DNA of 64,000 nucleotides from an uncultured Candidatus Saccharibacteria bacterium (GCA_964459225.1 CAYWKB010000001.1:289318-353317); one strand, 5' to 3'; shown: positions 1 to 60,132, counted from the stretch's first letter. A program made the numbers and translations. The notes: a model not told the origin generated them from the letters alone.

Positions 1-1020
1 TCACAAGTACTATATAGGAAATACAGACCATTCAATTGGAATGATGTAATTGGCCAGGATCATGTAATAGATGTTCTAAAAAGCTCAATTGAAGCAGAGA
101 AAGTGGCGCATGCATACCTTTTTTCTGGTGGAAGGGGAACTGGAAAGACATCAATAGCGCGTATATTTTCAAGGGCATTAAAAATAAGTGATAATGATAT
201 TTATGAAATAGATGCAGCTTCAAATCGTGGTATAGATGATATAAGGGAAATAAGGGATGGAGTAAGTGTTTTACCTTTTGAATCAAAATACAAAGTTTAT
301 ATTATCGATGAGGTACATATGCTCACAAAAGAGGCATTTAATGCATTGCTTAAAACATTAGAAGAGCCACCAGCACATGCAATATTTATTTTAGCTACAA
401 CCGAAACAGAAAAGATTCCAGAAACAGTTATTTCGCGTTGCCAAGTTTTTACATTTAAAAAACCAAATAGAGAAATACTTAAAAACTTAGTAGGGAAAAT
501 TGCAAAAAAAGAAGGCTATAGTTTAGATTCAGGAGTGGCTGATTTAATATCAGTGCTCGGGGACGGTTCATTTAGAGATACGCTTGGAATATTACAAAAA
601 GTCCTAAGTCAGGCAAAAGATAAAAAGATTTTAATAAAAGAGGTGGAGGATATAACAGGAGCGCCAAAGAGTTCATTGGTAAATGATTTTACGATGACAA
701 TTACAAATCAAGAAAAAGAAAAAGCATTACAAATTATTTCTAAAGTAATTGAGGGTAATATTTCAATAAAAGTATTCATAGCACTTGTTTTAGAAAAATT
801 AAGATTGGCACTTATAATTAAAAATATAAGTAGTAAAGAAATTTTTGATAATTATAAAAAAGACATAGGAGAAGATGATTTTAAAATTATTGAGAGTATT
901 TCAAAATCAAAAATAAATTCAGGAATGCTGCTCGAAATAATAAAAGCATATGATATGACAGGGAAATCATATATAGAAAGTTTACCATTAGAATTGGCAG
1001 TTATTGCTATTTGTGGGTAG
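1..1020 (+). CDS. dnaX: DNA polymerase III subunit gamma/tau (clamp loader ATPase), 5' partial (reading frame open at window start)
   Basis: Frame 1 translation from position 1 gives YRKYRPFNWNDVIGQDHV then Walker A GGRGTGKTS and IDEVHML, typical DnaX AAA+ motifs. The ORF continues in-frame upstream of the listed Met at 103. Confidence 0.85.
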   Translation, partial: SQVLYRKYRPFNWNDVIGQDHVIDVLKSSIEAEKVAHAYLFSGGRGTGKTSIARIFSRALKISDNDIYEIDAASNRGIDDIREIRDGVSVLPFESKYKVYIIDEVHMLTKEAFNALLKTLEEPPAHAIFILATTETEKIPETVISRCQVFTFKKPNREILKNLVGKIAKKEGYSLDSGVADLISVLGDGSFRDTLGILQKVLSQAKDKKILIKEVEDITGAPKSSLVNDFTMTITNQEKEKALQIISKVIEGNISIKVFIALVLEKLRLALIIKNISSKEIFDNYKKDIGEDDFKIIESISKSKINSGMLLEIIKAYDMTGKSYIESLPLELAVIAICG

Positions 1021-23935: not shown

Positions 23936-24559
23936 ATGGAATCGTCTTTTACCCGTGAAAGTATTTCCAGGTCTATAGACCAAGTGAGTCTAGAACTCCA
24001 GTCTAATTGGGGCTCAAGAAATAATTGTCGTCCCGGAGGATTTGCAAATGAATACTGCAGATTAATAAATAAAAGGGAGTCATTAAGTATTGCCTTCAAG
24101 GTTTTTGTCGCTCTGTTTGTGTTGTTTGCAATAGTGGCAATCATCTCAATTTTTAAGGGCGGCTCAATATGGTATATGGTAGTTACGATTGTCATTGGAT
24201 TGATAGCTTTGTGTTTATCTTGCTTGGTCGAATATACCGATCATGAACTTAATGAACTTATTTTATTGATAAAGCAATTCAATTCTGATTTTATTGATCT
24301 GATGATTCCTGTCAGTGTCAATAAGCCTATCGATAAACAGTATTTAATCGACCATGTGACATCACTAGCAATTGCGTGTCGTGAATGCATATCAGCTGGT
24401 GCTGGGCATCTTAACTTAACAGGTGATATTGATGAACAGATATTTATAATCCATAGAGCCACCGACCGCTACTGTAAAGCAGTTAACGGTGCTGCGAAGT
24501 TTGGTGTTAAAATAACCGGCGAAATGATCTCTTCGGGAATTGCCACCAGACATTCATGA
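23936..24559 (+). CDS. hypothetical membrane protein (two TM helices plus C-terminal soluble domain), paralog A
   Basis: 207 aa; hydrophobic segments FKVFVALFVLFAIVAIISIF and WYMVVTIVIGLIALCLSCLV; C-terminal FGVKITGEM motif shared with paralog B. Confidence 0.55.
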   Translation: MESSFTRESISRSIDQVSLELQSNWGSRNNCRPGGFANEYCRLINKRESLSIAFKVFVALFVLFAIVAIISIFKGGSIWYMVVTIVIGLIALCLSCLVEYTDHELNELILLIKQFNSDFIDLMIPVSVNKPIDKQYLIDHVTSLAIACRECISAGAGHLNLTGDIDEQIFIIHRATDRYCKAVNGAAKFGVKITGEMISSGIATRHS

Positions 24560-24679: not shown

Positions 24680-24783
24680 AACAGAATAGTCACCCAACTA
24701 AACTACATTATCTGAAAAGTTTTCATGATTTGTTGATTATGAAAATGGGAAAGTCCCTCAGAGGTGTTGTATGGGGTTACAAT
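24680..24783 (+). repeat. 104-nt conserved 5' leader, copy 2
   Basis: See copy 1. Here the leader mini-ORF MKMGKSLRGVVWG reads through (TAC) in frame into the main ORF, so the maximal ORF starts at 24730. Confidence 0.6.
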
Positions 24784-25344
24784 ATGGGCAAGAAAATTAA
24801 TTTAGCTAAATTCAAAGTAGCACTAGACCGAATAGACTCTGAGCTAGTCAGGATATGGAATGAAAAATACAGTTGCGACTTGAAAGATCTTCCCAGGCGG
24901 TATAATGATTGTAGGGCAAAGAGATCTGAATTTAAACTTAAAGAAGGAAAACGGATTTTCTTCATCGTGCTCACTTTTTTCCTTACTATGTATTTTAAAG
25001 GGAATAGTTATGAGCCATCATTGCCGGCGTTTCTGTCTGTGTCCGCCTGTATCATCCTGTTTCTTGAATGGCTCCTTTTTTCTCAAAGCATAAGCATAGA
25101 AAAAAGGAATCTGACAGAAAGCCTTGAAAGAACAGAGCTCATGATCAAAAATTTCATATTCGCTGTGAATTCACTGCTTATTGCAGACCCAGTTGCGATA
25201 ACTACGCAGACAATAATACAACGTGCGAGAGAGATTCATAATAATTTCTCTGAGAATCAAATAACTATAAACAGAGCATACATATGCTTTGAAAGATCAG
25301 CTGAGTCATTTGGTGTTAAGGTCAGTGAGTTGACTCTAAAGTAA
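24784..25344 (+). CDS. hypothetical membrane protein, paralog B (start at position-equivalent ATG; in-frame extension to 24730 possible)
   Basis: Same architecture as paralog A (2 TM: IFFIVLTFFLTMYF and AFLSVSACIILFLEWLLF; C-terminal SFGVKVSELT) but strongly diverged. Confidence 0.5.
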   Translation: MGKKINLAKFKVALDRIDSELVRIWNEKYSCDLKDLPRRYNDCRAKRSEFKLKEGKRIFFIVLTFFLTMYFKGNSYEPSLPAFLSVSACIILFLEWLLFSQSISIEKRNLTESLERTELMIKNFIFAVNSLLIADPVAITTQTIIQRAREIHNNFSENQITINRAYICFERSAESFGVKVSELTLK

Positions 25345-46182: not shown

Positions 46183-46189
46183 TATAAAA

Positions 46190-46735
46190 ATGGAAAATAA
46201 TAACTTCACACTAAAAGATACTAATGGTTACGGAAAGGGGGTTTATGCAAATAAAAATTTCAAAAAAGGCGAAATTATATACACACTTTCTGGTGAAGTC
46301 ATTACATTTGAGGAATCAATAAGAAGGATCAAGTCAGGTATCGAAAAACAAACAGATTCTCTGCAAGTTGGCTTGGAGATGGATATGGATCTAGATGAAT
46401 TTTCAAGAACATTCAATCATAGCTGTGATCCGAATGCAGGTCTGAGAAAGGTAAGTGAATTATTTGCATTAAGAGATATCAATATTGGCGATGAAATAAC
46501 TTATGATTATTCGGCAACAATTGGTCCAAACATACCGGATTCATTGTGGTCTATGGAATGCCTATGTGGGGCTAGTATATGCAGAAAGATATTACATAAT
46601 GTTTTGAGTATTCCAAAAGAAAGATTGGATTATTATAGGAGGGAAGGTGCTTTGCAGGACTATATAATAAAAGAGTTAGATATTATTGATTCAATGGGTG
46701 GTAAATTGCCTAAATATAATCCAATAGATTTATAG
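46190..46735 (+). CDS. SET-domain protein (putative protein lysine methyltransferase) with post-SET Cys cluster
   Basis: GKGVYA...GEII N-SET region, NHSCDPNAGL and EITYDY core SET motifs, post-SET CLCGASIC. Confidence 0.75.
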   Translation: MENNNFTLKDTNGYGKGVYANKNFKKGEIIYTLSGEVITFEESIRRIKSGIEKQTDSLQVGLEMDMDLDEFSRTFNHSCDPNAGLRKVSELFALRDINIGDEITYDYSATIGPNIPDSLWSMECLCGASICRKILHNVLSIPKERLDYYRREGALQDYIIKELDIIDSMGGKLPKYNPIDL

Positions 46736-46739
46736 TTTT

Positions 46740-49766: not shown

Positions 49767-50243
49767 ATGAATGAACAAATCGTCTTTGATACTAGGCCAG
49801 CTGGCGTTGAGTTTGTAGAAAGAATTTCTGGGTGTTACATCAGAAATGGTGAAGAGGCTTTATTTTTACAACATGCTGAGAATAGCGTTAAGCCATATGC
49901 TGGTAAATGGGGCTTAGTTGGTGGAAAAAGGCAAAAAGATGAAACACCTAAAGAAACAATGATTCGTGAATGTCGTGAGGAGACTGGGCTTCGGATGAAC
50001 GAAGGTGATCTACGATTATACAGGAGATTTTTCGTGATTTATCCTCCACCAACTCCTCCATTCATATATTTTGTATATGACTACCATTTGTTCAGACGTT
50101 TCAAACCAACTATCAGCCCTGAACACACTGATTATCGCTGGGAAAAAATTCAGAACATGACATGTAACGAACTCATGCCGGGACAATTTGAGGTGAATCA
50201 GAGAGTTTTCCCGGGTTGTTTCAATAAAATCACTGTACACTGA
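49767..50243 (+). CDS. NUDIX hydrolase
   Basis: Nudix box GGKRQKDETPKETMIRECREETGL; GC content higher than flanking genes. Confidence 0.8.
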   Translation: MNEQIVFDTRPAGVEFVERISGCYIRNGEEALFLQHAENSVKPYAGKWGLVGGKRQKDETPKETMIRECREETGLRMNEGDLRLYRRFFVIYPPPTPPFIYFVYDYHLFRRFKPTISPEHTDYRWEKIQNMTCNELMPGQFEVNQRVFPGCFNKITVH

Positions 50244-50416: not shown

Positions 50417-50452
50417 GCTGGGCATCGAAAAACGATGCTCAGCTTTTCCTTT
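50417..50452 (+). terminator. Rho-independent terminator (also at the 3' end of the convergent exonuclease gene)
   Basis: 11-bp stem gctgggcatcg/cgatgctcagc (one G-U), loop aaaaa, then ttttcctttt. Confidence 0.6.
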
Positions 50453-51027
50453 TAAAAGGGTAATGTAAAAGTCATAGCACTTTCCTCTACTTTTTCCCAA
50501 TCTTTTGTATTGAGTTTTATATCCTTCAATACTCCCATATCTTTGTATTTTAATTTACCATTTTGTAGTGCATAGTCATAAACCTTTTTTGTGATTTTTA
50601 CATCTTCAATGCAATATTTTATTATCTTGTCTATTTCACCTGTTTTCCACCATTCTACTGCCTCGAGTCCATGCCCGCTTTTATTTACTCCAAGTGTTGC
50701 CTCCGCTATTGTGTCGAGCTTTATTCTCCTACCTAGTGAATTTTTAATTTCTCTTAGTAAATCTAGGCTTTTGATTTTAGTTAAATCGCCTGAATAGTAT
50801 TTGTTTAAGAGGGGAATATCAAAGTGATCACCGTTGAAGGTTATCAACATATCTGCTTGTTCAAGTATTGGCCAGAGTTTTGGTAAGTCTTCTTGTAAAT
50901 AACTACTGTATTCATCAGTTTTAGAATCATGTATGCATACTACAGATATATCCAAGTCTACTGGATCATTTGAATTTACATCAGAAAATATGTTCCTTGT
51001 TTCTATATCAAATGTTATTTTCCTCAT
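50452..51027 (-). CDS. DEDD-family 3'-5' exonuclease (RNase H-like fold)
   Basis: FDIET (exo I), NGDHFDIP (exo II), YCIEDV (exo III)-like acidic motifs. Confidence 0.6.
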   Translation of the reverse strand: MRKITFDIETRNIFSDVNSNDPVDLDISVVCIHDSKTDEYSSYLQEDLPKLWPILEQADMLITFNGDHFDIPLLNKYYSGDLTKIKSLDLLREIKNSLGRRIKLDTIAEATLGVNKSGHGLEAVEWWKTGEIDKIIKYCIEDVKITKKVYDYALQNGKLKYKDMGVLKDIKLNTKDWEKVEESAMTFTLPF

Positions 51028-53062: not shown

Positions 53063-54049
53063 ATGAGAAAGGTAATTATTAAGGAGGGGCCTATAGTATT
53101 CCTAAGGGATGTTTTTATTATGGAAATATTGGCCACAGTGCTATTTTTCTTTGCGTCCTTCCTTGCTAACTATGAAATGTTGTATAAATCATTTTCTGTA
53201 TCACATCTCATAAGATATGATATTTTTACAATAATTGTATTTTCACTATTTCAATTATCGTATATTTGTATTTTATTTTTAAATTGGTATTTTTCTAGAT
53301 TTGAAATTCATGAAAAAGAAATAATAAGGAAATCTGGATTATTATTTAAACGCAGGAAATCTGTGAGTCTATATGATGTTGCATCCGTTGAGGTGTATCA
53401 AAGTCCATTAGGCAGACTTATGAATCACGCTACTATAATTTTGGAACATAATAATGGCAGAGTTACAAAAATGAAAAATATAGGAAATTTTGATGAATAT
53501 GTTTTTAATATAAAACAATTAGTACACAATGCATCTGGGCGAGTGCTAAGTAGGGATATAAAATCTCTTTTGAGTGAGGGGGAAAGTTCATATTTAGAAT
53601 ACAAGGAGACAATGAGATATGATGGGAGAAAGGGGGAAGTTAGTAAGGATTTAGAAAAAGTAATTATCAAAACAATAGTTGGATTTTTGAATTCAAATGG
53701 TGGAACTTTACTTATTGGTGTTAATGATTATGGAAGACCTGTCGGATTAGAGGGTGATTATAAAACATTAATTAAAAAAAATAGGGACGGTTTTGAAAAT
53801 CATTTAAATATGCTTATAAAGACTATGATAGGTCTTGGATTTTCTAAATACATAAATATTAAATTTGAAAAAGTTGTGGAGGATAATAAAGAATTTGATA
53901 TTTGTATGGTTATAGTCAATGAGGGACATAAACCAGCGTATCTTATAAATGGAGATAAAAAAGAGGATTTTTATGTGAGGGTGGGGAATACTACTCAGCC
54001 CTTTAATATGAGCGAGGCGTCTGATTATATAAAGACAAAGTGGGGTTGA
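53063..54049 (+). CDS. membrane-anchored protein with bacterial PH (bPH_2/DUF304-like) domain and C-terminal AlbA_2 (Schlafen-like) putative DNA-binding domain
   Basis: Two N-terminal TM helices, then SLYDVASVEVYQSPLGRLMNHATIIL (bPH-like), then LEYKET...IVGFLNSNGGTLLIGVNDYGRPVGLE (AlbA_2 signature). Confidence 0.55.
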   Translation: MRKVIIKEGPIVFLRDVFIMEILATVLFFFASFLANYEMLYKSFSVSHLIRYDIFTIIVFSLFQLSYICILFLNWYFSRFEIHEKEIIRKSGLLFKRRKSVSLYDVASVEVYQSPLGRLMNHATIILEHNNGRVTKMKNIGNFDEYVFNIKQLVHNASGRVLSRDIKSLLSEGESSYLEYKETMRYDGRKGEVSKDLEKVIIKTIVGFLNSNGGTLLIGVNDYGRPVGLEGDYKTLIKKNRDGFENHLNMLIKTMIGLGFSKYINIKFEKVVEDNKEFDICMVIVNEGHKPAYLINGDKKEDFYVRVGNTTQPFNMSEASDYIKTKWG

Positions 54050-54152
54050 CATTATATTATATTAATGTTAACATCAGAAACGGTTTAAATAGATACCAGA
54101 AGAATATCTGGATAATATCTGTTTATAGTTAGTAAATTGAAAACATACTGTT

Positions 54153-54404
54153 ATGTCAGACAAAATATCGGTTGTGGTTAAACAAATAGTTAGGGATGTT
54201 CGTACTCCCTACGTGGTCACAGTGCCTCAGGTGGGTCAAAACCTCTCTGGTATCAGGGCTGGTGACACTATAACTTTTACCCTTAGCATATGGGACGGAG
54301 ATGAGCTTTTTGCTGATCAGGTACTGTCGCTCGAAAGGTCGAAGGTTGTGAGGAGCCAAAAAGGATTCCGTTGTACGGGAGGCATTTCTTCTGTGAGTAT
54401 CTGA
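54153..54404 (+). CDS. small hypothetical protein (83 aa) at the start of the higher-GC segment
   Basis: Intact ORF with elevated GC; no SD; no motif. Confidence 0.3.
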   Translation: MSDKISVVVKQIVRDVRTPYVVTVPQVGQNLSGIRAGDTITFTLSIWDGDELFADQVLSLERSKVVRSQKGFRCTGGISSVSI

Positions 54405-54445
54405 AAAATAGAAACAAGAAAAAAGAAAAGAGAAAGAGAAATAGA

Positions 54446-55717
54446 ATGAAAGAAGCTAAGAAATCTTCGGTTATCACGACTAAAATCTCCGATTTAAATG
54501 AGGAATTCTTTGTAAGAGTTTCCTTGAACCAGGAGAGGGTCAATTTTTTGGCCGGCTTACTTGTTAATGAAACAGTACTCGATCCAATCGAGATTTCCAT
54601 GTTGGAGGGTAAGTTGGTTGTTGTTGATGGTAGGCATAGGGTGGCAGCAAATTCGGCGGTTGGCAATCATGAGGTTGAGTGTACTGTCTTAGAATTTGAC
54701 AGTAAAGCGTCTATGATTTCATATGCCTTTTTGAAAAACTCTGGCGGTTCATTACAAGCTACATCAGCTGACGCACTTCATGTCATAAGGGTTCTTTTGT
54801 CTGAAGGACTGAGGCATAGAGAAGTTGTTGCGCAACTATCGAAATCAGGTAGTTATTCACCAAGAACCATTCAAAAATGGGTCAAAGATGTATCCACTGA
54901 GAATTACAGGAAATCCTTGAGGGATGCTGTGAGGCATATTTCAGAGGGTAAGACTGTTGATCAGGCCTCTGAGCTTACTGGGTTAAAAAAAGAGCAAATT
55001 CAGAGGGGGTTAAATCCATCTGCTTTTGCTCCTTTGGGTGGCGGGCCTGCTGATAAGTTGAAGGGAAAGGTTTCTACCGAGTTCCACCGTTTCAATCTAT
55101 CTCTTGGTCAACATTCCAACTCACTAACAAGGGAAGTTAATTCTGGGTTGATTACTCCGGAACAAGCCAGGGGCATTATTGCCGAATGGGGTCGTAGGGT
55201 TTCAAATGTTCAAAAGCAATTTGCTAATACTCAGGCGAGATTATCAAAGGTGCTTGAGATCTATGAAAATCTTGGACACACACAATTAGCTCGAGTTGAA
55301 CCGGGTCCTACTAGGACGAAACATAACACTGATCATGGGGCAAACCATTCAGACACCACACCTAACGGTGGTATGGCTGTAAAAAAGCCAGTCAAGGTAT
55401 TAACACCATCTCAAATCAAGAAGACTGATGAAGTCTTCAGAAAGATGGGTATCTCACCTAAAGATCACAAAAAGATCACAGAGGAAGAGTTTGTTCTGAG
55501 GGCGATCAGGGAAATCAGGAAGGGTACTGAATTTCCTGGTATTCATACTGTGTTCACAGGGTTTAATGATGCGTTTCGACGGTATTTTGGTGACGGATCA
55601 AACCCGGTTGAGGCAATCACCAAACTCAGGGATGATGGAAAAATATTCATCATGGTTTCAAGAAAGGGTTCGGTAATCAATCTCGCTGAAGACAGAAAGG
55701 ATAAGTCAAACAGCTGA
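54446..55717 (+). CDS. ParB/DndB-like nuclease-domain protein (DGRHR motif), orphan (no ParA)
   Basis: LDPIEISMLEGKLVVVDGRHRVAANSAVG ParB-N/DGQHR-like motif; 423 aa from MKEAKK; elevated GC (~45%). Confidence 0.55.
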   Translation: MKEAKKSSVITTKISDLNEEFFVRVSLNQERVNFLAGLLVNETVLDPIEISMLEGKLVVVDGRHRVAANSAVGNHEVECTVLEFDSKASMISYAFLKNSGGSLQATSADALHVIRVLLSEGLRHREVVAQLSKSGSYSPRTIQKWVKDVSTENYRKSLRDAVRHISEGKTVDQASELTGLKKEQIQRGLNPSAFAPLGGGPADKLKGKVSTEFHRFNLSLGQHSNSLTREVNSGLITPEQARGIIAEWGRRVSNVQKQFANTQARLSKVLEIYENLGHTQLARVEPGPTRTKHNTDHGANHSDTTPNGGMAVKKPVKVLTPSQIKKTDEVFRKMGISPKDHKKITEEEFVLRAIREIRKGTEFPGIHTVFTGFNDAFRRYFGDGSNPVEAITKLRDDGKIFIMVSRKGSVINLAEDRKDKSNS

Positions 55718-55740
55718 TCCTAATCGTCGTATTTCACAAG

Positions 55741-55777
55741 TCGTCACTCCGAGAACGGGGTGGCGATTTTTTATTTT
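55741..55777 (+). terminator. Rho-independent terminator (family member 1)
   Basis: tcgtcactccg-agaa-cggggtggcga (two U-G pairs) then ttttttatttt. Confidence 0.55.
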
Positions 55778-55800
55778 ACTTAATTGATACAATAAATTGA

Positions 55801-55829
55801 TTGACAGCAAGTTATAAATGTGATTATAT
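55801..55829 (+). promoter_or_regulatory. sigma70-like promoter
   Basis: TTGACA-N17-TTATAT upstream of the TIM-barrel gene. Confidence 0.4.
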
Positions 55830-55862
55830 GAATATAGGAAAAAACACGGTTTCAACAGAAAG

Positions 55863-56756
55863 TTGACCCCAGATGTTTTAAATGCAGAAAATCGACAATC
55901 AACGATCAGTAATATGAAAATGTACTTTCCTTACATAACTATTTGCGGTATTCCATTTGTCAGTATGGAAAAAATTGCCAAGGCCGGTTTCAATGGTGTC
56001 GAAATACACCTAGCTGGACATCGGAGTCCTAGGACTTTGATGAAAGCCATTAAGAAAGCAGAGAAATTAGGTCTGGAGGTCACACTCCATCAAGCATGGA
56101 GCCTGAGTGAAAATCCTACACATTTTACCAACCATGTACTTAACTGGCTTGGTTGTTTGCCAAAAGACGGTTACACACTTCACGAACATTTTAAAGGTTT
56201 AGAGCGATATCCTAAGGTTGTTTATGCCGATAGGGTTTTGGATGTTGAACAGTACGGTCAGGCTGGGTTAATGGCAGAAGAAAATTTCTGGCTTCAGACC
56301 ATAAGTACTTTTGGTCCTATTGGTAGGCATAAAATGCCATTCGCAATGTTTATTAGTTGTATTGAAAATAAACCTCATCCTTTAGTATTCGATACTCAAC
56401 ATTTCCTTGAGTACTATGAAGGTGTGAGAGGAGTCTCCGGACTTACCTGGTCTACACCCGAAAGACTACTCGGAATACTGATGTTGTATTGGAGTCAGTT
56501 CGGTTCACAGGTTAGAGAAATACACCTTGTGGACTTTGATCATAATCTCGGTCATGACAAGGGTAGAAATGTAATGTTGGGTACAGGCGTACTACCACTA
56601 ATGGATTTCGGTGCACATGTGATGGCAAGTGGTCATTTGCCAAGTATTATCACTCCTGAGGTCAATCCACTGAAGCTTTTAAGGGCTTCTGCTCAAGACC
56701 TTAGGAAAGTTGCAGACTATGCTCGATCGTGTTTCCCTGGTGCTACATGGGAATAG
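55863..56756 (+). CDS. xylose-isomerase-like TIM-barrel protein (AP_endonuc_2 / endonuclease IV-like); start uncertain (TTG 55863 or ATG 55914)
   Basis: AGFNGVEIHL, LGLEVTLHQAW and IHLVDFDHNLGHDKGRNVMLGTG resemble the metal-binding His/Asp/Glu pattern of endonuclease IV/sugar epimerase TIM barrels; elevated GC. Confidence 0.45.
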   Translation: MTPDVLNAENRQSTISNMKMYFPYITICGIPFVSMEKIAKAGFNGVEIHLAGHRSPRTLMKAIKKAEKLGLEVTLHQAWSLSENPTHFTNHVLNWLGCLPKDGYTLHEHFKGLERYPKVVYADRVLDVEQYGQAGLMAEENFWLQTISTFGPIGRHKMPFAMFISCIENKPHPLVFDTQHFLEYYEGVRGVSGLTWSTPERLLGILMLYWSQFGSQVREIHLVDFDHNLGHDKGRNVMLGTGVLPLMDFGAHVMASGHLPSIITPEVNPLKLLRASAQDLRKVADYARSCFPGATWE

Positions 56757-56774
56757 ATCAGGATGCTTTGCGCG

Positions 56775-56808
56775 ATCACCATTCCGGAGACGGGGTGGTG
56801 ATTTTTTA
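56775..56808 (+). terminator. Rho-independent terminator (family member 2; homolog of 55741-55777)
   Basis: atcaccattccg-gaga-cggggtggtgat with U-G pairs at the same two positions, then tttttt; abuts the dnaE stop. Confidence 0.55.
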
Positions 56809-59800
56809 TACCAAAACCTTTACATTATCTATCAAAATACTTTTCTGACCATTTCTTTCTGATACCTTTCCTTTTACCGCCAGACATTTATCAGCCACAA
56901 ATGCAATTTTAAATTGTGCTAGGACTTTTGGAAATACTACTGTATCTATTTCACCTGTAAAATCTGAAACCTTTACAAATGCCATTGCATCTCCTTTTTT
57001 TGTGTTCAAGGATCTTATTTCTGTAACTATACATGCAATCATAACTTCTGTTCCATCTTTTAATTCTTCCTTTAATTTTTTTATATTCATGTCTCGCTTT
57101 TGTATTGTCTCTCTGTATTTATCTAGTGGATGTCCGGAAATATACAATCCTAAAAGCTCTTTTTCCCATGCTAACTTTTCTTTTACATCTGCATTTGGTA
57201 CTTCTTCGAGTTTTAGACTTGGCAGGGTAGATGAATCTGACATTAATCCCCACAGTGAATCTTGATTATCTGCCTGCTTTCCTTTTTCTTTATTATATGC
57301 GAGTAATGTTTCGATATTTCCAAGTAATAGTCCTCTATCATGTCCAAAACTATCCAATGCTCCTGCTTTTATTAGTGCTTCTAATGATTTTTTATTTAGA
57401 TTTTTGTCCTTTACTCTGTCTAGGAAATCCACCAAAGATGTAAATCTTCCACCACGCTTCCTCTCTTCAATTATTGCTGTTGAAATTCCTTGACCAAAGT
57501 TTTTGATTGTTACTAGTCCGAAGCGGATGGTGTCTTTCGGCTCGGGAATAGTGTCTCCTCCTGGCCCTGCGAAACTCGCTTCGCTATCGCTACGCTCAGA
57601 CAGTCCTCGGGCCATCGAAGACACTATTCCCGAGCCTTTGACCACCGTAAACTGACTAAAACTTTCATTTATATCGGGTGGAAGTATGGGAATATTCATT
57701 CTTTTACATTCACCGATTATTTCTGCTATTTTTTCTACATCACCTGCATCTGCTGTAAGTACGGCTGACATATATATAGCAGGGAAATTTGCTTTCATAT
57801 ATGCAGTTTGATATGCGACTAATCCATAACTCGCGGCATGGGACTTATTAAATCCGTAAGCAGCAAAGGGCTCAATTAATTTCCAAAGTGTATTGGCATC
57901 TTTTTTCTTCATTCCATTTTTTACTAGTCCGGACATAAGCTTTTCTTTTTGCTCTTCCATTTCTTTTGGAATCTTTTTTCCCATTGCCTTACGTAGCTTA
58001 TCTGCCTCAAGCCATGAATATCCTCCAAGCTTAATAGCAATCATCATAACGTCATCCTGATAGGTTATAACTCCATAAGACATGTCCAAAATATCTTTCA
58101 TTCTTGGATCCAAATACTCTATTTTTGAATTATCATGCTTTCGTTCTATATATTGAGGAATTGATTCTAGTGGTCCTGGACGATATAGGGCTACCATGGC
58201 GTTTATGTCGTGTATTCTTGATGGCTTTAGATCAACTAGGAATTTTGTCATACCAGTTCCATTTAGCTGGAACACTCCTGTTGTTTCTCCACGAGCCAAC
58301 ATTTCAAATGTCTTTGTATCGTCTCTTGGTATATTTTCAATATCAATTTCAATATTTTCTATTTTCTTTACTCTATCTACCGCATCGGCAAGTATTGAAA
58401 GATTTTTGATTCCCAAAAAGTCGAATTTCAAAAGTCCTACACCGTCTTCACCGACTGCATGCATATCATATTGGGTGATGATTTTTTTGACTGGATTTCC
58501 ATTTGCGTCTTCTTTGCTTTTGGTATCGTATTGAAGTGGTACAAATTCGGTCAGTGGTTCAGGAGCAATAACAACACCGGCAGCGTGAACAGAAATGTGT
58601 CTTGCACAGCCTTCTATTTTTTTTGCCATGTCTATTATTTTTCGTGTATCTTCTTCTTTTTCATACGCTTCTTTTAATTCTGCTACTTCAGTTAGAGCAC
58701 GATCAATAGTCATGGGGAAACCTTGCGCACCAAGAGGAATGAGTTTTGATATTCTATCTGCAACTGCGTACTCATATCCCATAGCACGTGCAATATCACG
58801 CACAGCACCTTTTGCCATCATAGTTCCAAATGTTCCTATTTGCGCCACATGATCATGGCCATACTTTTTTCTTGCATAATCAATAACCTCATCTCGTCTA
58901 TTATCGGCAAAGTCCATATCGATATCGGGAGCTGACGGTCTTTCGGGATTTAGAAATCTTTCGAAGGGAAGTTTAAAGGCAAGCGGATCTACATTTGTAA
59001 TTCTTGTTACATAAGTTGTAAGTGAGCCGGCAACGGAACCTCGAATATTTGTAAGTATTCCATTTTCATGTGCGTATTTTAAAAGATCAGATACCACTAG
59101 GAAATACTGCGCATATCCCTTATCTTTTATAACTTTTAATTCATATTCAAGTCTATCCACAACTTCCTTACTCATTTCCAAACCTCTTTTCGGTATTCCT
59201 TCATATGCCAATCTTTTTAATTCGTCATCATGAGATAGGCCACTTTCAACAATAAATTTTGGAAAATACCATTTACCTAATGTTAATTCTAGATTGCATT
59301 CATTTGCGATTTTCACAGTATTGTCTAGCGCTTCGGGAATATCTCGGAAAAGTTCTTCAGCCTTTTCACTTGAAATAAATGAAAAATCTTCTTCATTTTC
59401 ATCACCATTAATATTTGTATTTGATGAATTCCTATCTGACATATCGCCTGCAGTGTTAACAAGTGTTAGCATTTCACGAGCAGATCTATCATCTGAATTT
59501 ATATAGTAAACATCTTGTCCAGCTACTATTTGTGTATTTGTTTCTTTTGCTAATTTGATTAATTGTTGCATTAAACCTTCATGACCTTGTATTTCATTAT
59601 GTCTTGTTATTTCAATATAAAAATTATCAGCGCCGTATACTTTTTTATAATATTCAATATGTTCTTTTGCTTTTTCTACATTTTTATTTTTCAATGCTGT
59701 TGAAATTTCACTAGAAAAAGAAGGAGCAATACAAATCAAATCAGAATTATATTTTTCTATTAATTCTCTATCAATACGAGGCTTATAATAAAATCCTTCA

Positions 59801-60132
59801 AAATATGAATACGTCACAAGCTTCACAAGATTTTTGTATCCCGCATGATTTTTTGCAAGTAAAACTAGACGATTGCGTCTATTATCAATACCTGCTTGCA
59901 TGTCCTTTCGAGTTCTAATAGCGGTATAGAAATCAACACCGATAATAGGTTTAATACCTTTTTTCTTTGCAGTTTTATAAAATTCAATAGCACCATACAT
60001 ATTACCAGCATCAGTAAGAGCAAGGGCAGGCATATTAAGCTCTTTTGCACGATCAAGTAAATCATCGATTTTAGGCAGGGCATTAAGAAGAGAATAATGA
60101 CTGTGAGTGTGTAGGTGAATAAAGCGAGACAT
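56806..60132 (-). CDS. dnaE: DNA polymerase III alpha subunit
   Basis: 1108 aa; N-terminal PHP domain HLHTHSHYSLL, polymerase core, OB-fold C-terminus. Confidence 0.95.
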   Translation of the reverse strand: MSRFIHLHTHSHYSLLNALPKIDDLLDRAKELNMPALALTDAGNMYGAIEFYKTAKKKGIKPIIGVDFYTAIRTRKDMQAGIDNRRNRLVLLAKNHAGYKNLVKLVTYSYFEGFYYKPRIDRELIEKYNSDLICIAPSFSSEISTALKNKNVEKAKEHIEYYKKVYGADNFYIEITRHNEIQGHEGLMQQLIKLAKETNTQIVAGQDVYYINSDDRSAREMLTLVNTAGDMSDRNSSNTNINGDENEEDFSFISSEKAEELFRDIPEALDNTVKIANECNLELTLGKWYFPKFIVESGLSHDDELKRLAYEGIPKRGLEMSKEVVDRLEYELKVIKDKGYAQYFLVVSDLLKYAHENGILTNIRGSVAGSLTTYVTRITNVDPLAFKLPFERFLNPERPSAPDIDMDFADNRRDEVIDYARKKYGHDHVAQIGTFGTMMAKGAVRDIARAMGYEYAVADRISKLIPLGAQGFPMTIDRALTEVAELKEAYEKEEDTRKIIDMAKKIEGCARHISVHAAGVVIAPEPLTEFVPLQYDTKSKEDANGNPVKKIITQYDMHAVGEDGVGLLKFDFLGIKNLSILADAVDRVKKIENIEIDIENIPRDDTKTFEMLARGETTGVFQLNGTGMTKFLVDLKPSRIHDINAMVALYRPGPLESIPQYIERKHDNSKIEYLDPRMKDILDMSYGVITYQDDVMMIAIKLGGYSWLEADKLRKAMGKKIPKEMEEQKEKLMSGLVKNGMKKKDANTLWKLIEPFAAYGFNKSHAASYGLVAYQTAYMKANFPAIYMSAVLTADAGDVEKIAEIIGECKRMNIPILPPDINESFSQFTVVKGSGIVSSMARGLSERSDSEASFAGPGGDTIPEPKDTIRFGLVTIKNFGQGISTAIIEERKRGGRFTSLVDFLDRVKDKNLNKKSLEALIKAGALDSFGHDRGLLLGNIETLLAYNKEKGKQADNQDSLWGLMSDSSTLPSLKLEEVPNADVKEKLAWEKELLGLYISGHPLDKYRETIQKRDMNIKKLKEELKDGTEVMIACIVTEIRSLNTKKGDAMAFVKVSDFTGEIDTVVFPKVLAQFKIAFVADKCLAVKGKVSERNGQKSILIDNVKVLV

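Follow-up and report, generated by a model that had tools for sequence, protein, structure and literature searches.

A ParB-like gene cassette kept in Patescibacteria and a strain-variable TIM-barrel gene: two putative transcription units at a Saccharibacteria locus

Gene content of the locus

We analyzed a 64-kb stretch of DNA from an uncultured Candidatus Saccharibacteria bacterium (GCA_964459225.1, CAYWKB010000001.1:289318-353317; hereafter the window), centering on three open reading frames (ORFs) on the plus strand between 54.15 and 56.8 kb. The ORFs encode an 83-aa protein, a 423-aa ParB-like protein containing the motif VVVDGRHRVAA, and a TIM-barrel protein, as the first-pass annotation of the window had stated. 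That annotation had also proposed, as plausible, that the three genes form a single horizontally acquired module for DNA modification, defense, or repair. Our best explanation is instead that the region holds two independent transcription units, namely, unit 1 (54046-55769), which comprises the small-protein gene and the ParB-like gene (together, the cassette), and unit 2 (55775-56803), which comprises the TIM-barrel gene. We hold this explanation with middling confidence as a whole, that is, the division into units jointly with the mechanism proposed below for unit 1 and the enzyme class proposed for unit 2. The features of the locus are listed in Table 1.

Absence of the TIM-barrel segment from a sister strain

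A contig from a sister strain (L001) is syntenic with the window, and the proteins encoded in the flanks are 82-96% identical. The gene order in L001 is the bPH-AlbA2 gene, the 83-aa gene, the ParB-like gene (422 aa), and dnaE, with no TIM-barrel gene; the 83-aa and ParB-like proteins are 78-80% identical between the window and L001. The only terminator of L001 has a left flank corresponding to that of T1 and a right flank corresponding to that of T2. In a blastn map, L001 11293-11330 aligned both to window 55737-55774 and to window 56774-56811, and nothing in L001 aligned to window 55775-56773. The terminator flanks and this map therefore identify the TIM-barrel gene and its AT-rich upstream region as an indel of approximately 1 kb bounded by a duplicated terminator. 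The first-pass annotation had noticed that the two larger genes are each followed by a similar terminator, and T1 and T2 are indeed identical at 25 of 30 bases, with a spacing of 1035 bp. The 18-nt terminator core occurs exactly twice in the 64 kb, where 0.11 occurrences would be expected even with three mismatches allowed, and T2 lies directly against the stop codon of dnaE, which runs convergently. The segment was either gained in the window strain or lost in L001, and the two lineages leave the direction unset; the third genome examined for this purpose, L042, does not differ from the window and represents the same strain.

The pairing of the ParB-like gene with the TIM-barrel gene did not hold up beyond this strain either, as a TIM-barrel homologue was found in none of the 28 other ParB-family loci. 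Unit 2 is without a functional tie to unit 1, and the TIM-barrel gene is ordinary accessory content. The cassette genes of the two strains show a synonymous divergence (dS) of 0.65-0.68, similar to that of the flanks (0.75-2.6), and the pair of the 83-aa gene and the ParB-like gene therefore predates the split from L001. The ratio of nonsynonymous to synonymous divergence (dN/dS) versus L001 was 0.20 for the 83-aa gene and 0.19 for the ParB-like gene; judging from these ratios, both cassette genes are under purifying selection.

Table 1. Features of the locus in window coordinates or, for segments of the ParB-like protein, in residue numbers
Feature	Position	Strand	Remarks
bPH_2 + SLFN_AlbA_2 gene, upstream neighbor	53063-54049		Pfam; predicted membrane protein
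Cassette promoter-like site: TTGACA, 17 nt, TG-n-TAACAT	54046..54074	+	10/12 matches, TG before -10; putative function
5' leader hairpin	54086..54125	+	Outer helix, 4-nt internal loop on 3' side, inner CCAGA/TCTGG hairpin
AAAUUGAAAAC, after leader hairpin	54131-54141	+	
83-aa small-protein gene	54153..54404	+	Unannotated family; upstream partner of ParB-like gene; family hidden Markov model (HMM) 102 bits
423-aa orphan ParB-fold protein gene	54446..55717	+	Family HMM 266 bits; VVVDGRHRVAA present
ParB/Srx N-domain of ParB-like protein	aa ~8-100		FFVRVSLNQERV at 21-32, DGRHR 61-65, N98
Two helix-turn-helix (HTH)-like units of ParB-like protein	aa 125-189		
Helical region of ParB-like protein	aa 200-277		
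Low-complexity linker of ParB-like protein	aa 278-330		
RKMGI peptide of ParB-like protein	aa 332-336 (55439-55453)	+	At fusion junction
Winged-helix-like domain of ParB-like protein	aa ~344-413 (55475-55684)	+	C-terminal-domain HMM 113 bits
Intrinsic terminator T1, end of cassette transcript	55738..55769	+	-20.9 kcal/mol, z -6.3
Strain-variable segment: AT-rich upstream region + TIM-barrel gene	55775..56773	+	No L001 counterpart
Possible TIM-barrel gene promoter: TTGACA, imperfect -10 within TGTGATTATAT	55803..55832	+	Read from sequence; weak, putative
Xylose-isomerase-like TIM-barrel gene, PF01261	55914..56756	+	ATG start, 280 aa; alternative TTG 55863, 297 aa
Intrinsic terminator T2, diverged direct copy of T1	56774..56803	+	-21.4 kcal/mol, z -4.3
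dnaE, 3.3 kb	56806-60132	-	Convergent with the three-gene region; sits between it and the MmeI-like gene
MmeI/Type ISP-like restriction-modification gene, 1043 aa	60271-63402		Pfam; not adjacent to the three-gene region

Conservation of the cassette

A word-indexed search with the ParB-like protein returned two relatives only; with an HMMER profile search, the number of cluster representatives rose to 1780 at E <= 1e-3, with 445 of them at E <= 1e-10 and 101 at E <= 1e-30. The family members are mostly 260-310 aa long and cover residues 10-270 of the query; DGRHR is present in 120 of the 151 top representatives. The loci were searched for with a 10-sequence subset of the family as the query because the full 61-sequence alignment was too diverse. 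Among the loci from species-representative genomes, 10 of 11 belonged to metagenome-assembled genomes of Patescibacteria, and the groups represented were Paceibacterota, Saccharibacteria, Nomurabacteria, Vogelbacteria, and Parcubacteria. Metagenomes supplied a further 19 ParB-family loci, and IMG/VR supplied three weak ones.

According to HMMs built from the loci, 20 of the 28 that could be assessed have a gene for an 83-aa-protein homologue directly upstream of the ParB-like gene. In addition, the last ~85 residues of the ParB-like protein from the window are encoded by a separate gene directly downstream (92-125 aa) in 11 loci; of the 151 top representatives, only those of the window and L001 have this domain fused to the ParB-like protein. 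What had been described as a long charged C-terminal region is thus actually a linker followed by a conserved domain. The genes flanking the cassette vary by locus and are housekeeping genes, including those for GluRS, MurG, PGI, DHDPS, ThrRS, ClpB, RNase Y, and a 5'-3' exonuclease. Unit 1 is a chromosomal operon kept in many ultra-small Patescibacteria. A literature search found nothing on the cassette, which is apparently uncharacterized and undescribed.

The 83-aa protein looks beta-rich, with five strands suggested by its sequence, and had no match in Pfam, PHROG, NCBIfam, PADLOC, or PDB. Other small genes stand upstream of the ParB-like gene in some loci without the 83-aa homologue: the one in L040 (5589-5861) looks by eye like a gene for an HU-type histone-like protein, and those of L029 (5331-5615) and L036 (1924-2166) encode a common Cys-rich small protein with CD-x-C...SN-x-WF.

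Fold and nucleotide-site motifs of the ParB-like protein

The AlphaFold2 (AF2) models in this study were built from very shallow alignments. For the ParB-like protein, the predicted local distance difference test (pLDDT) score was 56.8 overall and 70-87 for residues ~40-190, and the model is usable only in that stretch. Its top PDB matches in Foldseek were ParB-CDP (6sdk), Noc (7ol9 and 7nfu), KorB-KorA (8qa9), and pNOB8 ParB-N, with E values from 3.5e-6 upward. The matches to ParB, Noc, and KorB span the N-domain and the HTH region (190-270 columns), versus 77-90 columns of the N-domain only for Srx, SerK, and SbnI; the matches in BFVD were phage ParB/Srx proteins. At the sequence level, the protein matched phrog_1033 of PHROG with an E value of 6e-9 and NCBIfam SerK weakly (E 0.005), and no PDB sequence was matched with either a single sequence or a profile. 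The ParB-like N-domain proposed in the first-pass annotation is thus borne out as a domain of the ParB/Srx type.

An hhalign comparison with Bacillus subtilis Spo0J, using a hand-entered sequence, gave an E value of 1.5e-4 and a probability of 52%. In this alignment, V-R corresponds to P-R of box I, G-R-H-R to G-E-R-R of box II, and K97-N98 to E111-N112, the family consensus at K97-N98 being A-N; R24, R65, and N98 stand in the places of ParB box I-III residues. Of the ParB boxes, the protein keeps the Gly, the last Arg, and the Asn, and both Glu residues are replaced (E78 by Arg and E111 by Lys or Ala). Canonical ParB uses residues of box II (GERRxR) and box III (ENxxR) to bind and hydrolyze CTP, and E78 and E111 of B. 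subtilis ParB are implicated in the hydrolysis. The LG(R/K)GL motif, through which canonical ParB binds and stimulates ParA, is absent from the N-terminus of the ParB-like protein, which reads MKEAKKSSVITTK.

The first-pass annotation had named an adjacent or distal ParA, together with a parS-rich chromosome, as what would mark a simple partition protein. Neither ParA/Soj (tblastn with a hand-entered Soj sequence) nor a canonical Spo0J was found in the 64-kb window or the related loci, and no ParA was found within 8 kb of the ParB-like gene in any of approximately 29 loci. There was likewise no match to a DndB or DGQHR model of Pfam or NCBIfam at E <= 0.1, and no match to PADLOC-DB 2.0 for the window proteins or for 59 of 61 ParB-family members. 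The statement that no named system matches the region therefore stands, and the suggested defense role finds no backing in these searches or in the housekeeping flanks at the other loci.

Winged-helix-like domain and the (R/K)MG(L/V/I) peptide

The C-terminal domain of the ParB-like protein was predicted by AF2, with a confidence below 50 in this part, to consist of three helices and a beta hairpin, which fits a winged helix. It had no match in Pfam, PHROG, NCBIfam, PADLOC, or PDB. The occurrence of the domain is tied to a short peptide: in all 11 loci with a separate domain gene, the C-terminus of the ParB-like protein reads ...AL-x-(R/K)-M-G-(L/V/I), and in the 14 assessable loci that lack such a gene it never does. 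The (R/K)MG(L/V/I) peptide is carried by 23 of the 151 top family representatives and also forms the C-terminus of the stand-alone winged-helix-like domain proteins. In the window, where the domain is fused, the peptide is found where the two parts join, and no copy is left at the C-terminus. These observations suggest that the peptide docks on the winged-helix-like domain.

The domain also occurs outside the ParB context in P0141 and P0008, which have two or five tandem copies with the (R/K)MG(L/V/I) peptide between them. The neighborhood of P0141 consists of PrkA-DUF444-SpoVR, which has no relation to the cassette, and the winged-helix-like domain is therefore an independent module. In these tandem-domain proteins (P0008 and P0141; L043 5001-5561), the peptide has the form ALxKMGL.

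Promoter-like site and structured 5' leader of the cassette

The promoter-like site that precedes the small-protein gene is the best-scoring one in the region, and TTGACA-17-TGnTAnnnT occurs upstream of the small gene in relatives as well. The hairpin behind it in the window had a predicted folding energy of -14.7 kcal/mol (RNAfold, z -2.1), is unique in the window, and is the only palindromic element near the operon. The leaders of relatives share a layout of the promoter-like site, a two-tier hairpin with a CYGU loop, and then UCUUUGAAAA.

Covariation was analyzed in eight leaders upstream of the small gene (L009, L010, L012, L014, L023, L024, L027, and L041). RNAalifold gave 14 pairs, seven of which showed compensatory changes. 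In the pair counts, 92% of cells were paired versus 43-60% in slid controls, and seven pairs were changed on both sides versus 2.3 in shuffles, a value reached by none of 500 shuffles. The inner helix was 98% paired, with six of its eight pairs covarying, and G-U pairs occurred on the sense strand. A covariance model built from these leaders found the element once per locus and only upstream of the small gene in approximately 300 kb searched, and no Rfam match was found for the leader. The same two-tier architecture was predicted by RNAfold in the window, L001, L011, L013, L014, and L028. From its position and predicted shape, the leader of the window is probably homologous to that of the relatives, and the element is a candidate new cis-regulatory RNA.

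Base composition

The reported rise in GC content was confirmed: 500-nt windows gave 0.38-0.44 over 54.25-56.75 kb versus 0.27-0.32 directly upstream, and the three ORFs have gene GC values of 0.42-0.46 versus 0.325 for the whole window. Their GC content at third codon positions (GC3) is 0.35-0.44, whereas 51 other long ORFs average 0.233 (SD 0.061). The first-pass annotation had considered horizontal acquisition plausible. GC3 of the ParB-like gene, however, exceeds that of the flanking ORFs in all 13 loci compared (the window, L001, L010-L013, L015, L018, L020, L029, L035, L037, and L040), with a mean excess of 0.12, and does so whatever the host GC, which spans 0.30-0.63 over these loci. 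The GC3 excess is a family-wide property and not evidence of recent transfer. The one-sidedness of the excess in every lineage and the vertical inheritance of the cassette between the two strains speak against taking the GC rise for recent transfer; horizontal transfer alone does not explain the one-sided bias.

The TIM-barrel gene

The TIM-barrel protein matched PF01261 of Pfam with an E value of 4.8e-8 and 33.4 bits (gathering cutoff, 31.1). The ORF contains IHLVDFDHNLGHDKG, and the protein shows the motifs EIHLAG, TLHQ, WLQTIS, FDTQH, EIHLVDFD, and TPEV. The candidate promoter in the AT-rich region upstream was not called by a consensus promoter scan. Among 5.8 billion proteins, homologues formed one cluster only (P0005, 36% identity), which is named sugar phosphate isomerase/epimerase by JGI; the P0005 gene stands alone in a region adjoining mraZ-rsmH-PBP-murE, with no ParB gene nearby.

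The first-pass annotation had called this protein similar to endonuclease IV (EndoIV) or AP_endonuc_2. The assignment to the AP_endonuc_2/xylose-isomerase-like superfamily, to which EndoIV also belongs, holds, but the likeness to EndoIV itself is not supported. No match was found to the nfo family of NCBIfam, PDB sequence searches gave no match at all, EndoIV included, and EndoIV was absent from the top 50 Foldseek matches of the TIM-barrel model, which is a poor AF2 model (pLDDT 40). The best Foldseek match of that model was D-psicose 3-epimerase (7x7w, E 5e-3), which is weak evidence at this pLDDT. An hhalign comparison with Escherichia coli Nfo, using a hand-entered Nfo sequence, had a probability of 1%; at this low confidence, H216 and E261 were matched in the aligned C-terminal stretch, and D229 and H231, two of the nine ligands of the trinuclear zinc site of EndoIV, aligned to Gly and Asn.

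The protein shows D-x-x-H, H-L-x-D, and C-terminal Glu motifs and has Asp160, His204, and Glu249 in place, but the position of the first Glu reads Gln128. PF01261 enzymes usually have a Glu as the first metal-binding or catalytic residue, and the metal site of the isomerase/epimerase branch is Glu-Asp-His-Glu. Judged by eye from motif spacing, Gln stands at the expected first metal-ligand Glu (EndoIV E145) in both members, within WLQTIS in the window (56289-56306) and RLQTYS in P0005. Relative to EndoIV, the protein would lack D229 and H231 by this alignment and has no match to the nfo model; relative to typical epimerases of PF01261, it appears to have Gln in place of the first metal-ligand Glu. 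We read the TIM-barrel gene as encoding a putative accessory metal-dependent enzyme of the sugar or phosphosugar isomerase/epimerase type that has an unusual metal site.

Proposed mechanism and comparison with known systems

We infer that unit 1 encodes an orphan ParB-fold DNA-binding switch with partner proteins, most likely working in the manner of KorB, Noc, and BisD, which are ParB relatives outside partition. The N-domain of the ParB-like protein would bind nucleotide, and hydrolysis may be slow or absent because the counterparts of E78 and E111 are Arg and Lys or Ala. The HTH region would bind DNA, and the small partner proteins would modulate or assemble the complex. The (R/K)MG(L/V/I) tail would dock on the winged-helix-like domain, a contact that would be covalent in the window through the fusion. 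The output may be DNA organization or transcriptional control, and the leader hairpin could give feedback on the unit 1 operon. In unit 2, the TIM-barrel gene would have been gained or lost by an event between the two terminator copies.

Among known systems, KorB of plasmid RK2 has in common with unit 1 a ParB-fold N-domain followed by an HTH region, small partners, and gene regulation beyond segregation, the last being a proposed role in unit 1. KorB has a GERR-type box II, CTP binding, IncC (ParA) as a partner, and a domain at its C-terminus for dimerization; KorA and TrbA are helical proteins of the HTH type. Unit 1 differs in its GRHR box II, the absence of a detected ParA, a beta-rich-looking upstream partner, a winged-helix-like second partner, and a chromosomal location in Patescibacteria. 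Unit 1 agrees with ParB/Spo0J and Noc in how its N-domain and HTH region are folded and ordered and keeps the box I Arg, the Gly and last Arg of box II, and the box III Asn; unlike canonical ParB and Noc, it has no ParA found with it, no LG(R/K)GL, replacements of both Glu residues, a different C-terminus, and a score below the threshold of PF02195. BisC is the small partner of BisD; BisD is encoded on an integrative conjugative element and binds CTP, and unit 1 is likened to it by fold only. The AspA-ParB-ParA system of pNOB8 is an archaeal three-part plasmid segregation system that needs ParA. It encodes a small winged-helix DNA-binding protein together with ParB-N (PDB 5k5d and 5k5a), in which unit 1 is similar, but the gene order and the small proteins are different.

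ParB-fold clamps with small partners are exemplified by KorB-KorA (PMC11790492) and KorB-TrbA (PMC13584720), and BisD of ICEclc is a CTP-binding orphan ParB-like clamp that activates transcription over a long distance (PMC12409273). Orphan ParBs are reported to be common (PMC12704722). The DndB/DGQHR proteins, regulators of phosphorothioation, share D-G-x-H-R in a ParB/Srx-type domain with unit 1, but no model of them was matched and the neighborhood holds no dnd, pbe, or related genes. The gene for TasParB of TIGR-TasA resembles that of unit 1 in being ParB-like, in belonging to a small conserved operon whose flanks vary, and in occurring partly in Patescibacteria (PMC12045711). TIGR-Tas was rejected as a candidate: no dual-repeat array was found in 52-58 kb, and the 83-aa partner is too small for a TasA-type protein and had no Nop-type match in Pfam.

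Several points weigh against this interpretation of the two units. The AF2 model of the ParB-like protein is mediocre, and the protein does not reach the threshold of PF02195. DGRHR resembles the motifs of Srx, SerK, and DndB as much as those of CTPase clamps, so that an enzymatic role is possible. Specificity is reported not to be predictable from sequence or AlphaFold3 (PMC12704722). The winged-helix assignment rests on low-confidence predicted secondary structure, and motif and domain could occur together because the proteins descend from one subfamily and not because they are in contact. As for the leader, the covariance model built from the eight relatives misses the leaders of the window, L001, L011, L013, and L028, and the RNA-like character of the element, with its G-U pairs, is no less in keeping with a mechanism at the RNA level than with a DNA operator. 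On the side of unit 2, the TIM-barrel model is poor, and its fold matches are weak evidence.

A more far-reaching version of the proposal is tentative, and we give it clearly less credence than the two-unit explanation. It holds that unit 1 would be an undescribed, Patescibacteria-wide three-component ParB-fold system, made up of a nucleotide-gated DNA binder, a beta-rich-looking partner, and a peptide-recruited winged-helix-like protein, with the operon under the control of a covarying leader RNA of its own; the system would serve ParA-free chromosome organization or global regulation. The GC3 excess would then stem not from transfer but from some constraint that the locus itself is under, for instance binding sites within the genes or the structure of the mRNA.

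Alternative explanations

Unit 1 could be a partition or nucleoid-positioning adaptor that works with a distal ParA/MinD-type ATPase, the C-terminal L-x-(R/K)-M-G-L acting like LG(R/K)GL. The ParB/Noc-like fold and domain order, the chromosomal housekeeping context, and the HU-type neighbor read by eye in one locus are in keeping with such a role, and by eye the peptide resembles the ParA-binding motif of PMC12704722. However, no ParA accompanies the ParB-like gene at the distances searched, the N-terminal LG(R/K)GL is absent, box II is GRHR and not GERR, and the peptide, present in a minority of members, tracks the winged-helix-like domain and not an ATPase. We consider a partition role unlikely.

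No more probable is that the ParB/Srx domain is an enzyme, either an ATP-dependent, SerK/Srx-like kinase or phosphotransferase or a nuclease, tethered to nucleic acid by the HTH region. G-x-H-R is the Srx/SerK-type form of box II, and the replacement of both Glu residues, the structural matches to Srx, SerK, and SbnI, and the weak SerK match would agree with catalysis. SerK and Srx are found among uncharacterized orphan ParBs, for which binders of ATP and GTP have been shown (PMC12704722). Against catalysis, the best structural matches extend over the N-domain and the HTH region, a span that the Srx, SerK, and SbnI matches do not reach, and no substrate-related neighbor gene is conserved.

We give slightly less weight still to a selfish or addiction-type cassette, or a remnant of plasmid or phage maintenance, that moves between genomes. 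Orphan ParBs are enriched on mobile elements (PMC12704722), the flanks differ between loci, GC3 stands above the flanks in every locus compared, weak members lie on an IMG/VR contig, and ParB-like PHROG families are matched. Random transfer would nevertheless shift GC in both directions and not upward in 13 of 13 loci, and the vertical inheritance between the window and L001, with flank-like dS and dN/dS of approximately 0.2, also counts against a mobile cassette. No integrase, transposase, or repeat boundaries were found around the cassette loci, which lie among housekeeping genes; a tblastn search of 50,697 phage records with the ParB-like protein gave nothing at E <= 1e-3, and plasmids yielded just two weak matches.

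On a par with the selfish cassette in probability is a system that acts on RNA, in which the small protein or the whole complex would bind the leader hairpin and perhaps other RNAs. Such a system would account for the covariation of the leader, its sense-strand G-U pairs, and the conserved UCUUUGAAAA after it, and the apparent five-strand beta structure of the small protein would be a shape common among RNA binders. Occurrence of the hairpin once per locus fits autoregulation and not a regulon, however; no RNA-binding family was matched, and the architecture of a ParB domain with an HTH region is of the DNA-binding type.

A single acquired module for DNA modification, defense, or repair, built from a ParB/DndB-like NTPase or nuclease and an EndoIV-like endonuclease, is very improbable: DGRHR does resemble DndB-type DGQHR, the TIM superfamily does include EndoIV, GC is raised, and AlbA_2/Schlafen-type and Type IIG restriction-modification genes lie within 4 kb, but the TIM-barrel gene is absent from L001 and from every other ParB-family locus, no PADLOC, DndB, or nfo model was matched by the window proteins, D229 and H231 of EndoIV are not conserved in the low-probability alignment, the flanks elsewhere are housekeeping genes, the GC3 excess is family-wide, and the cassette predates the strain split. 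With its coupling of the genes largely refuted, as it is contradicted by synteny and co-occurrence, this joint reading should be dropped. At this locus, raised GC, adjacency, and look-alike terminators did not mark a functional module.

With respect to the orphan ParB-fold switch that we favor for unit 1, almost no regulatory or chromosome-organizing machinery has been characterized in Patescibacteria. If the proposed picture holds, the cassette would provide a testable operon with two new small protein families, a docking peptide, a fusion that hints at the contact, and a cis-regulatory RNA candidate. Orphan ParB-fold proteins are under active study (PMC12704722, PMC11790492). The survey of orphan ParBs in PMC12704722 started from PF02195, which the ParB-like protein does not reach, and the family may therefore be under-sampled.

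Flanking genes and other differences between the strains

The first-pass annotation had placed the region between a bPH-AlbA_2 gene and an MmeI-like gene. The former does adjoin it, but the latter does not, as dnaE lies between. The product of the upstream neighbor has a bacterial PH domain fused to a Schlafen/AlbA_2 domain, is kept in L001 at 91% identity, and had no PADLOC match. A conserved synteny of the cassette with dnaE was considered and rejected, since the large neighbors in L015, L018, L029, and L036 are not dnaE, which, outside the window and L001, was seen only in L011, approximately 3 kb away and in a different arrangement. The MmeI-like gene is strain-specific; L001 homology stops at window 60169, and RNase HII is found there in L001 (14737-15291).

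Several other segments of the window differ from L001 or from their surroundings. Two of them, with a SET-domain and a NUDIX gene, fall together with the MmeI-like gene within 16 kb. A SET-domain gene (181 aa, PF00856, E 2e-15) at 46187-46739 is absent from L001 as a clean 553-bp indel. The segment 49537-50267, which contains a NUDIX gene (49767-50243) with raised gene GC (0.40), has no nucleotide homology with L001; the NUDIX proteins of the two strains are just 40% identical, compared with 82-96% for the neighbors, and the gene looks replaced or fast-evolving. Two ORFs at 23936-24559 and 24730-25344 (segment 23577-25344), just downstream of a tRNA-Ala gene, have GC3 values of 0.35-0.39 and no Pfam match and may be another small island. 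At the other extreme, an RNase_H_2/PolB-exonuclease-like protein of 191 aa encoded on the minus strand (50452-51027) is 96% identical to its L001 counterpart, with a dN/dS of 0.011, and is better conserved between the strains than the adjoining HisRS or TruB.

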